A DNA stretch of 64,000 nt from NCBI RefSeq assembly GCF_030013595.1, contig NZ_CP122768.1; one strand, given 5' to 3'. The DNA is from Escherichia coli (GTDB lineage: Bacteria; Pseudomonadota; Gammaproteobacteria; Enterobacterales; Enterobacteriaceae). The position numbers are program-made. Shown here in pieces: positions 27,001 to 30,000 of the stretch. Numbering within the stretch: position 1 is the first letter of the stretch; each line of letters opens with the position of its first letter.

Positions 27001-30000
27001 CGTGCGCCACAACCGTCCTCCGCATCCTGTCATACGCGTAAAACAGCCAGCGCTGACGTGATTTAGCACCGACGTAGCCCCACTGTTCGTCCATTTCAGC
27101 GCAGACAATCACATCACTGCCCGGTTGTATGCGCGAGGTTACCGACTGCGGCCTGAGTTTTTTAAGTGGCGGAAAATCGTGTTGAGGCCAACGCCAATAA
27201 TGCGTGCACTGGCGCGACATCCGACGCCATTCATGGCCATATCAATGATTTTCTGGTGCGTACCGGGCTGAGAGGCGGCGTAAGTGAACTGTAGTTGCCA
27301 TGTTTTACGGCAGTGAGAGCAGAGATAGCGCTGATGTCCGGCGGTGCTTTTGCCGTTACGCACCACCCCGTCAGTAGCTGAACAGGAGGGACAGCTGATA
27401 GAAACAGAAGCCACTGGAGCACCTCAAAAACACCATCATACACTAAATCAGTAAGTTGGCAGCATCACCAACAGAAGCATCGATAAAAGTTGACTTATTT
27501 CTGATACTCAGTGGCCTGGCCCTTCCTTGTTCAATATACCTGACAAAAACAATCACACTAAAATACACATCCATATCATTCTGGAAAAAACCTCTTTTCT
27601 GGTCTTATGGTATATATCATTTTCATCTTGTTTATATAATGACATGTATAGTTTTAGCAATACCTTCTGCAATTATCGTTTTATTCTTTCACTTTTATCA
27701 AAACATCACCAGAAACTGGAAGTGACAACCGCAATAATGAACATAAAAAGGCAAATCAGAATGGCAGTAAATCAATAAAGTACCATTTCATATGAATCAT
27801 CAGAAAAACGGTGGACGCGACATCCAGCACGAGGCAAAACACAGCAACAAAATAAGCCGGATATCGCGCCCTGTACTTTTCTAACTCAACTCCCGGCATT
27901 GTGCAAGTTTTAATCGCAGGTGGATTCAGAGCCACGCCCCCATTGATTCAGCCTGAAGACACGTATATCCTTGGAGAAAGCAGGAATCTCATTGCTGTGA
28001 AATTCCTTACAGAATCTTCAGCCCCATTTTATGGGGCTTTTTTTGGTGCCCCCACGCTGTTACCACACTTTCGGGATGCGAATAAAAAAGCCCACAGTTT
28101 TTACACTGCGGACTTTTGTTTTTTCTTTGTGATTTGTGTGCAAGGGTGCGACTTTCGACCGAACCTTTGGCAACCGGATAGCGGGGACTGTTGTCCCCGC
28201 TGCGGTTTCTTACGGTTTACACTGCAAGAACGCCGCAATTTCCGACCACATGAAGCTTACCCTGAATTCACACGGTGATGCGTGTAACACCCAGACGGTC
28301 AGCAACATGGTCAGGCATAACATGCCCACAATGATCGTTTTTTGCGGCATAGCACTTGCTCCTTTTACAGAGAGGCGCTAACCTTCCACTTGCTGAAGGT
28401 AGATGGTCAGGGCCTCGGGTTAACGTTTAAGTTGACTCGGGGCCTTTCCACATCCGGCCTTCAGGTAATCCTTCCAGCCGTCAGCCGAAAGGCACCCGCG
28501 CGTAATGTACTGGTTTTCAGAGAGGTCCGCAATCTTCCGGTGACGAGATCATCTGCACACGCCCCGGTGGGACGGGCTAACGGTATATTCAGGTGCAGGA
28601 TCTCTCTGTCTGGTGCGTTTTTAAATTGTCAAACGCACCCTGGCGGCAAAATCAGCCACCTTTTTTCGCATCAACAAAACGCCCAAAACGCTGGGTAAAG
28701 CGTGCAACATTACCTTCTGAAGCGACAGTTCTCAGTTTACCTGTATAAAACGGATGCGACTTAGAAGAAACGTCAATTGTAACATATGGGTAAGTTACAC
28801 CATCCAGTTCAATTACCCGGTCAGTTTTGATCGTCGAACCGATCCTGAAGTACTCATCAATACTGGTATCGTGAAATACTACTGTACGGTATTCCGGATG
28901 GATATTCGGTTTCACAACAGTTTTCCCCCTTTAAGTGAAAATTCCGCATAAAGGTACATATTCAGACGGTCAGATTCAACTGTCTGTTCTTATAACCTCA
29001 CTCTCTTTCAGTATTACAATATGTTATATAATTATAAACTGGACTTCCCGAAAAAATCCATTAAATAAGAAGCGAGCCGTTGCGGAGGCTTGCTCTCTCC
29101 TTTAACCTCATGTGCAATATCCGTAACGCGCTCACATAAATCATCATCTGATAATATAACAACACCCATTATTTTATTCTGACCTAAAAACTTCTTATGA
29201 AATAAACGTTTACCCGACGTATCTGATCCCGCTGTTTTTACCTGTATCCTTTAACATACTTGAGAAGCCCGCTGAAAAAATATACCGTAAAGGCGGTTCT
29301 CTGTCTTCCATAAACCTGTCGGATAAGAAGGGCATTAAATGAAAACCAAAAAAGTTATGATGATTGCACTGGTCAGCTCTGCGCTGGCTCTTTCAGGATG
29401 TGGAGCCATGGGCACAGCGATCAAAAAACGAAATCTGGAAGTAAAAACCCAGATGAGTGAAACCTGAGGTAGCCTGAGTTTAACGGACACTCCTTCCTGA
29501 AATAGAATGGCATCAGAAGGAGCTAATAATGAGCAGAAAAACCCAACGTTACTCTAAAGAGTTCAAAGCCGAAGCTGTCAGAACGGTTCTTGAAAATCAA
29601 CTTTCGATCAGTGAAGGCGCTTCCCGATTATCTCTTCCTGAAGGCACTTTAGGACAATGGGTTACCGCCGCCAGAAAAGGGCTCGGTACTCCTGGTTCCC
29701 GCACGGTGGCTGAACTGGAATCTGAAATTCTGCAACTGCGTAAGGCGTTAAATGAAGCTCGCCTTGAGCGAGATATATTAAAAAAAGCAGCTGTAGATTC
29801 AATCTGTCAATGCAACACCCCTTTCAATTATCTCTTTCACTGCCCGCGACGGTATCGGTTATCAGTTTGACCTGCTGGCTAACGGTGAAACCGTACTGCG
29901 TGATGCATCCGGCGAAAAACGCATCAAGGGTGAAAAAGACGGTCGTATGCTCATGAATGTTGGCCTGAATGCGGAAATTCGCGACAACATCCGCTTCGGT

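Follow-up and report, generated by a model that had tools for sequence, protein, structure and literature searches.

In the Escherichia coli chromosome, ykgM and ykgO, which encode L31p and L36p, form an operon of the Zur regulon. Zur-repressed, cysteine-free (C-minus) L31 paralogs, among them YtiA/RpmEB of Bacillus subtilis and alternative ribosomal proteins of mycobacteria, have tight Zur repression, with induction upon zinc depletion, as their defining feature, and ribosomes with bL31A are unlike those with bL31B in cold fitness and in the maintenance of frame (PMC7363858). L31p also represses rpmE translation, for which K2, H6, and E8 are required, and contacts 5S rRNA through M1, K2, and H6 (PMC9825181). 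Here we analyzed an additional ykgM-type gene (28652..28915, minus strand) in a 64,000-nucleotide stretch of E. coli DNA (RefSeq assembly GCF_030013595.1, contig NZ_CP122768.1; the window), located on the tellurite/urease (ter/ure) island of Shiga toxin-producing E. coli (STEC) and enterotoxigenic E. coli (ETEC). The account that we favor, with moderate confidence, is that this copy has been uncoupled from Zur and is transcribed constitutively after loss of the operator and of ykgO and gain of a promoter. The gene itself is annotated in RefSeq and its expression values are present, unremarked, in published supplements; a literature search found no paper discussing the island copy.

A strong operator (consensus AATTGTTATGTTATAACATAACAA), ending 8 to 25 nt before the start codon, was present in 80/80 chromosomal orthologs, and TTGTTATGTTATAACATAACAA was found 8 to 25 nt before the ATG from Escherichia to Vibrio (80/80). 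In a multiple alignment, the equivalent segment of the island copy (28916..28946, minus strand), which lies between the TTTATG after the −10 hexamer of the proximal promoter (P2) and the GTG start codon, reads CGGAATTTTCACTTAAAG where the chromosomal genes read the operator GTTATGTTATAACATAAC (6/19 positions identical), and a weight-matrix scan of this segment gave no match. When the 60 nt preceding the island GTG were aligned locally to the upstream region of K-12, 22/27 positions were identical (P = 0.002 versus shuffles). The core promoters, TTGAAT-CTGACCGTCTGAATATG-TACCTT-TATG in the island copy and TTGAAA-TGATCCGGATGAGCATG-TATCTT-TATG in K-12, have the −35 box, the 17-nt spacer, and the −10 box in common and lie at equal distance from the start codon. 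Similarity between the two genes returns at the ribosome-binding site, and because the flanks of the operator are about 81% identical, the operator has been specifically replaced and not slowly eroded. By this alignment, unrelated sequence stands in place of the Zur operator in the island copy, and the core promoter is kept. The motif GGTTATAAGAACA at 28983-28995 was also considered as a decayed operator and set aside; it aligns to nonoperator sequence 5′ of the −35 box.

Two promoters precede the island gene on the minus strand. P2 (28951..28979; TTGAAT at 28979..28974, a 17-nt spacer, and TACCTT at 28956..28951) is a homolog of the core promoter of chromosomal ykgM, and its start was mapped by Cappable-seq of strain EDL933 to 28944 (EDL933 record 1082846), 29 nt before the GTG, in 8/8 conditions (PMC10469882). 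P1 (29031..29060), as read from the sequence, consists of TGGATT (29060..29055), an 18-nt spacer, and a consensus TATAAT (29036..29031); this promoter and a start near 29024 were predicted before the start-site data were consulted. In these data, 29024 (minus strand; record 1082766) was the main start in 8/8 conditions, yielding a 109-nt leader, and the mapped starts at 29024 and 28944 lie exactly 7 nt after TATAAT of P1 and TACCTT of P2, respectively. Exponential-phase and stationary-phase cells were covered for each of four media: lysogeny broth (LB), M9 plus casamino acids, LB plus malic acid, and LB plus NaCl. In exponential phase, mean signals of island P1 versus the main start of chromosomal ykgM were 262.6 versus 96.7 in LB, 149.9 versus 32.8 in minimal medium, 262.3 versus 64.1 in acid, and 233.2 versus 110.3 in salt; the corresponding values in stationary phase were 108.6 versus 10.8, 91.2 versus 18.4, 75.6 versus 8.3, and 146.8 versus 36.7 (PMC10469882). 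Since P1 is the main start in LB, the promoter beneath the Zur-like element described below is strongly active in zinc-replete medium. An inverted repeat, CAGACGGTCAGATTCAACTGTCTG, is located at 28963-28986 in the P1 leader, where it overlaps the −35 box of P2, and was scored as terminator-like on the plus strand by scan. We also considered a structured or autoregulatory leader like the 5′ untranslated region of rpmE; the predicted fold was no better than that of shuffled sequences (z = −0.26), and by eye it did not resemble the leader of rpmE.

Transcript levels of both gene types were compared in RNA sequencing (RNA-seq) data for EDL933 covering eleven conditions (PMC4048457, Table S4; a value given with a fold change is the figure printed beside it). 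Chromosomal ykgM (Z0364) had a value of 34 in LB and increased strongly in minimal medium (log2 fold change, 9.4; value, 15658) and with nitrite (log2 fold change, 4.3). The two island copies had higher values in LB (170 for Z1152 and 178 for Z1591) and increased by log2 fold changes of only 1.5 (value, 315) and 1.4 (value, 301), respectively, in minimal medium and of 1.0 each with nitrite. The adjacent hok mRNAs, with LB values of 5615 (Z1153) and 5784 (Z1592), shifted to a similar extent, with log2 fold changes of 1.6 and 1.5 in minimal medium and 1.4 each with nitrite. Across the nine nonfecal conditions, levels of the island copy correlated with those of hok (r = 0.92); the correlation with chromosomal ykgM was not significant (r = 0.49). 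The summed signal of the two EDL933 island copies was approximately ten times that of chromosomal ykgM in LB and approximately 4% of it in zinc-poor minimal medium; with increases of only log2 1.4 to 1.5, the island copies would thus provide a few percent of the ykgM mRNA under zinc shortage. The strong derepression under zinc scarcity that marks members of the Zur regulon was not observed for the island copy in minimal medium, an indirect proxy. The only ykgM listed in the core-genome RNA-seq table of PMC6729007 is the chromosomal copy. In EDL933, the IS66-family insertion sequence (IS) ISEc8 begins 264 nt upstream of chromosomal ykgM (record 344923-345186), and a second start lies 244 nt upstream; the gene still increases by log2 9.4 in minimal medium.

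Whether another Zur site controls P1 bears directly on this pattern. The sequence-only reading had pointed to an AT-rich palindromic candidate Zur site upstream of the gene, and the sequence in question, GTTTATAATTATATAACATATTGT, is indeed present at 29039..29016 on the gene strand and contains an exact 10-bp palindrome, TATAATTATA. With an operator weight matrix built from 80 ykgM loci (species representatives, from Escherichia to Vibrio and Pseudoalteromonas), the element at 29014..29037, with the half-site TTACAATATGTTATATAATTATAA on the plus strand, scored 11.19 bits, the top score among about 128,000 window positions, and local dinucleotide shuffles (125 to 423 nt) attained this score with P = 0.002 to 0.006. 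Within about 170 kb of further E. coli DNA, higher scores were reached by true Zur boxes alone. The four validated E. coli Zur boxes (Gilston et al., PMC4219657) scored 36.0 (ykgM), 21.1 (znuA/C), 20.4 (zinT), and 20.3 (pliG) bits, however, so that the candidate falls about 9 bits short of the weakest of them, and only one of its half-sites (ATGTTATA) is good. From the Gilston 20-mer TGWNAYRWTATAWYRTNWCA it deviates at 3 positions (validated boxes, 0 to 1) and from the 23-mer consensus at 9 (validated boxes, 2 to 6), and the purine/pyrimidine skeleton RNNNYRNNRYNNYRNNNY, which it matches fully, is also matched by 486 window positions. By the published consensus patterns, the candidate is thus not distinctive, and by its matrix score, its resemblance to a Zur box is not due to chance, yet extends to a half-site only. 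The palindrome of the earlier proposal therefore stands, and a complete box comparable to the validated operators was not found. The next-best matrix matches in the window, at 2136-2159 (plus strand; 10.6 bits) and 25761-25786 (9.5 bits), were both far below the validated boxes. A Fur box in place of a Zur box was considered at the candidate and was not distinctive either (8/19 mismatches), and all carriers, at least 97.9% identical upstream, are too alike for phylogenetic footprinting of the candidate. The element sits in upstream sequence that has no counterpart at the chromosomal locus.

That this element is a working Zur operator over P1, which would make the island copy a zinc-sparing L31B induced by zinc limitation, we consider highly unlikely. 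Its score is one that chance rarely produces, it covers positions −13 to +11 of the mapped main start, the usual geometry of Zur repression, and the island copies increased in minimal medium and with nitrite, where chromosomal ykgM is most strongly induced. Against these points stand the missing half-site and the shortfall to the validated boxes, the many skeleton matches, the strength of P1 in zinc-replete LB, the lack of any box at P2, and an induction of approximately 2.7-fold versus approximately 680-fold for the chromosomal gene, with the non-Zur neighbor hok shifting equally. The Zur-like half-site over P1 would be a weak modulator at most. Zur control and a role in zinc limitation, as the earlier reading had suggested, are therefore not supported, given the missing canonical operator, the activity of P1 in LB, and a rise of only log2 1.4 to 1.5 compared with 9.4.

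The island gene encodes a protein of 87 amino acids (aa) that was identified as bL31B from the open reading frame (ORF) list, Pfam and NCBIfam matches, and RefSeq (WP_000803992.1). It begins with GTG and ends with a TGA stop codon at 28654..28652, and a Shine-Dalgarno sequence, AGGGGGA (28924..28930, minus strand), read from the sequence 8 nt 5′ of the GTG, is invariant in a diverged island lineage. Pfam PF01197 (Ribosomal_L31) covers the protein over profile positions 1 to 65 of 65 (E = 2.8e-24). The NCBIfam model for type B 50S ribosomal protein L31 (NF002462) scored 121.6 bits (cutoff, 86), and the type A models NF000612 and NF001809 scored 57.6 and 52.1 bits, below their cutoff of 70. Judged by these profiles, the protein is a clear member of the type B L31 family. 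Its translation contains no cysteine, and the CxxC zinc ribbon is thus absent, which indicates a zinc-independent form; its C terminus is DAKKGG. All residues that L31p requires for repression of rpmE translation (K2, H6, and E8) are retained, as are those that contact 5S rRNA (M1, K2, and H6). An identical protein sequence occurs in 32,163 indexed blocks of the assembly collection. We infer that the protein is made, that it would enter the ribosome at the bL31 site, and that it would repress rpmE translation as L31p does; if so, zinc-free L31 would be on hand in carriers at a basal level also with ample zinc, and any role of the island copy would be at this basal level and not at an induced level.

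The island gene is an additional copy and not a relocated chromosomal gene, because O157:H7 strain PV15-279 carries it together with chromosomal ykgM-ykgO beside ecpR, and EDL933 has chromosomal Z0364 and, on the island, two copies identical to each other, Z1152 and Z1591. Among 5426 complete E. coli genomes, about 575 contain the island gene together with its upstream region at an identity of at least 99%, and about 5070 contain chromosomal ykgM, matching the query at about 82% and in the coding region only. Carriers include O157:H7, O111, O145, O121, O103, and porcine ETEC, each with one or two extra ykgM genes. Compared with K-12 ykgM, the island gene has 81% DNA identity and 93% aa identity (6/87 residues differ), a proportion of synonymous differences (pS) of 0.685, which is near saturation, a nonsynonymous rate (dN) of 0.036, and a ratio of nonsynonymous to synonymous rates (dN/dS) of 0.02; GC content at third codon positions (GC3) was 0.35 versus 0.47. 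The closest protein in large databases is Escherichia YkgM (91 to 94% aa identity), followed by Kluyvera at approximately 80%. A search for a donor species among the GTDB species representatives gave none closer than Escherichia (91 to 92% aa identity). A plasmid origin of the traT-ykgM-hok module was likewise pursued and dropped: only three records labeled as plasmids carry the module, the one of them that was examined (pB39_V) contains this very island segment, and other plasmids have nothing homologous to the upstream region.

Taken together, these data fit a scenario in which an Escherichia-type ykgM, encoding a complete, zinc-independent bL31B, would have been captured on the ter/ure island as an extra copy with three associated changes. 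The L36B gene ykgO is absent, the operator directly after the −10 box has been exchanged for unrelated sequence with retention of the homologous P2, and a second, stronger promoter, P1, now gives a 109-nt leader from further upstream. The island copy is accordingly transcribed at a low to moderate level throughout the conditions covered and is essentially uncoupled from the zinc/Zur signal, by which chromosomal ykgM is switched several hundred-fold. The data above show the identity of the gene, its paralogy with chromosomal ykgM, the operator loss, the positions of the starts, and the expression pattern.

Several observations weigh against this interpretation. The EDL933 RNA-seq data comprise essentially one library per condition, multimapped reads are shared by the two identical island copies, and the comparison is one of media, in which neither zinc itself nor, for the island copy, zur was manipulated. 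Genuine but weak relief of Zur at P1, or cross-mapping from the 50-fold more abundant chromosomal transcript, could account for some of the 2.7-fold increase seen in minimal medium. Z1152 and Z1591 have no entry in the ribosome-profiling and proteomics supplements. Of 79 full-length chromosomal matches, 78 start with ATG and 1 with TTG, whereas the island copy uses GTG, and its surroundings consist of IS elements and fragments of genes. Selection on the donor chromosome before capture may explain the low dN/dS, and the island copies, at least 99% alike, are too uniform for selection after capture to be measured. Some of these points also speak for a passenger gene, a captured chromosomal leftover that is transcribed and carried with the island without selective or physiological consequence. 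Its setting among a traT N terminus, IS elements, and autotransporter fragments next to the addiction-type hok/sok locus, its GTG start and lost operon partner, an mRNA level per copy of approximately 2% of that of induced chromosomal ykgM, and the near identity of the copies, in which purifying selection after capture cannot be shown, would all suit such a gene. The ORF, Shine-Dalgarno sequence, and both promoters, however, are intact and invariant in both island lineages while the neighbors are broken; the dN/dS, the near-saturated synonymous sites, and the GC3 suggest long residence under constraint; and the LB signal of the two copies exceeds that of chromosomal ykgM approximately tenfold. 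We regard the passenger explanation as unlikely. Quite unlikely, in our view, is that the precise loss of the operator and the gain of a strong promoter mark a rewired ykgM allele that keeps a standing pool of bL31B in STEC and ETEC; were this the case, the pool would take the place of some bL31A and dampen rpmE translation ahead of zinc limitation, giving a head start in host-imposed zinc starvation or altered translation (cold growth, frameshifting), and the effect would be transferable with the ter/ure island.

Annotation of the neighboring genes was taken from E. coli CAU16175, which is 100% identical over 1,041 bases (window 28300-29340) and has the gene order terW, IS66 elements, Hok/Gef, L31B, traT N-terminal fragment, transposase and autotransporter fragments, and ureG to ureD. 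This locus is the ter/ure island (OI-43/48 type). On one side, the ykgM unit is bounded by a hok/sok locus that is not part of it (28210..28508, minus strand; RefSeq Hok/Gef and Rfam sok), with the Hok/Gef gene at 28210..28350 (minus strand) and the sok match at 28339..28497 (E = 1e-9, slightly under the gathering score). On the other side lies the traT N-terminal fragment (29339..29467, plus strand; ORF list and RefSeq), divergent from ykgM and separated from it by a 423-bp intergenic region. A hairpin (GGTGCGTTT...AAACGCACC; 28612..28639, minus strand), read from the sequence 13 nt 3′ of the stop codon and not followed by a U-run, occupies the place of the ykgO start in the chromosomal operon, and hok/sok comes next. 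A tblastn search of the whole 64-kb window with YkgO and RpmJ for L36B gave chance matches only (best E = 2.7), and a remnant of ykgO DNA, considered 3′ of island ykgM, was not detected there. The description that the sequence-only reading had given of the locus, a paralogous ykgM-type L31B gene on a mobile island, between a hok-like locus and a traT fragment and without its L36B partner, thus agrees with the family matches, the lack of cysteine, and the 93% identity to YkgM, with the island gene order of CAU16175, with the annotated neighbors, and with the tblastn result; nor is the gene the only ykgM copy in PV15-279 and EDL933, which have both.

The island is rearranged around ykgM. In three related elements (L006, L008, and L101), traT is intact and divergent from ykgM, near type I restriction-modification genes and an integrase gene. 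In O121:H19, ykgM is flanked by a traT annotated as missing its N terminus, blastn similarity to the window nevertheless reaches 29298, and the urease block lies on the other side of traT, its relative orientation matching that in the window. Approximately 0.8 kb beyond the hok gene are two ORFs (26717-27414, minus strand), which we take to be InsB and InsA of IS1. The hok mRNA is highly abundant in the EDL933 RNA-seq data, as the LB values of Z1153 and Z1592 illustrate, and the Cappable-seq starts of hok (window 28508, 28497, 28405, and 28403) are weak and condition specific; this pattern would fit a stable, processed mRNA. An ORF of 45 aa (MGVVILSDDDLCERV...; 29032..29169, minus strand), the stop codon of which falls inside the Zur-like element, was considered and dropped after Pfam gave no match; it contains a single start, specific to one condition (window 29145). 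Starts on the opposite (plus) strand were recorded by Cappable-seq in EDL933 at approximately 29116, 29164, and 29369 (record 1082674, 1082626, and 1082421, respectively), within the ykgM-traT intergenic region and the traT fragment, and are probably remnants of the traT promoter.

About 1 in 10 complete E. coli genomes thus holds an extra ykgM that escapes the zinc switch, and studies of ykgM deletion or expression in carriers may leave functional copies in place or fail to tell them from the chromosomal gene. Production of the island protein, if it occurs, would supply zinc-independent L31 in zinc-replete conditions, which bears on ribosome heterogeneity and on the circuit by which L31p represses rpmE. 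The contribution of the island copy to zinc sparing under limitation looks minor, because the chromosomal copy out-expresses it there about 50-fold. The locus is a clean case from nature of a gene that, once captured by a mobile element, lost its operator and kept its promoter; it is of modest interest, mainly as a caution for ykgM genetics in STEC.

Among known systems, the C-minus L31 paralogs share with island ykgM a zinc-free paralog beside a zinc-binding form, and the tight Zur repression and zinc-depletion induction that define them (PMC7363858) were not seen for the island gene. VSP-II of Vibrio cholerae is likewise acquired island DNA with a gene of the zinc-starvation type; VSP-II genes are described as Zur regulated (PMC8248653), whereas island ykgM has a half-site and no Zur-type response. 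Type B L31 genes on plasmids of Salmonella, Enterobacter, and Pseudoalteromonas are similarly located on a mobile or accessory replicon, with only 69 to 72% DNA identity to island ykgM, and are likened to it by gene alone. The closest counterpart is chromosomal ykgM-ykgO, the L31p of which is 93% identical to the island protein, likewise free of cysteine, and has the same N terminus, and the core promoter of which is homologous, with a distance from transcription start to start codon of 26 to 28 nt, compared with 29 nt in the island copy. Unlike the chromosomal operon, the island copy lacks ykgO, has a replaced operator, and starts with GTG; it lies on a mobile island, has an extra promoter from which a 109-nt leader is made, and is expressed constitutively where the chromosomal gene is induced by log2 9.4.

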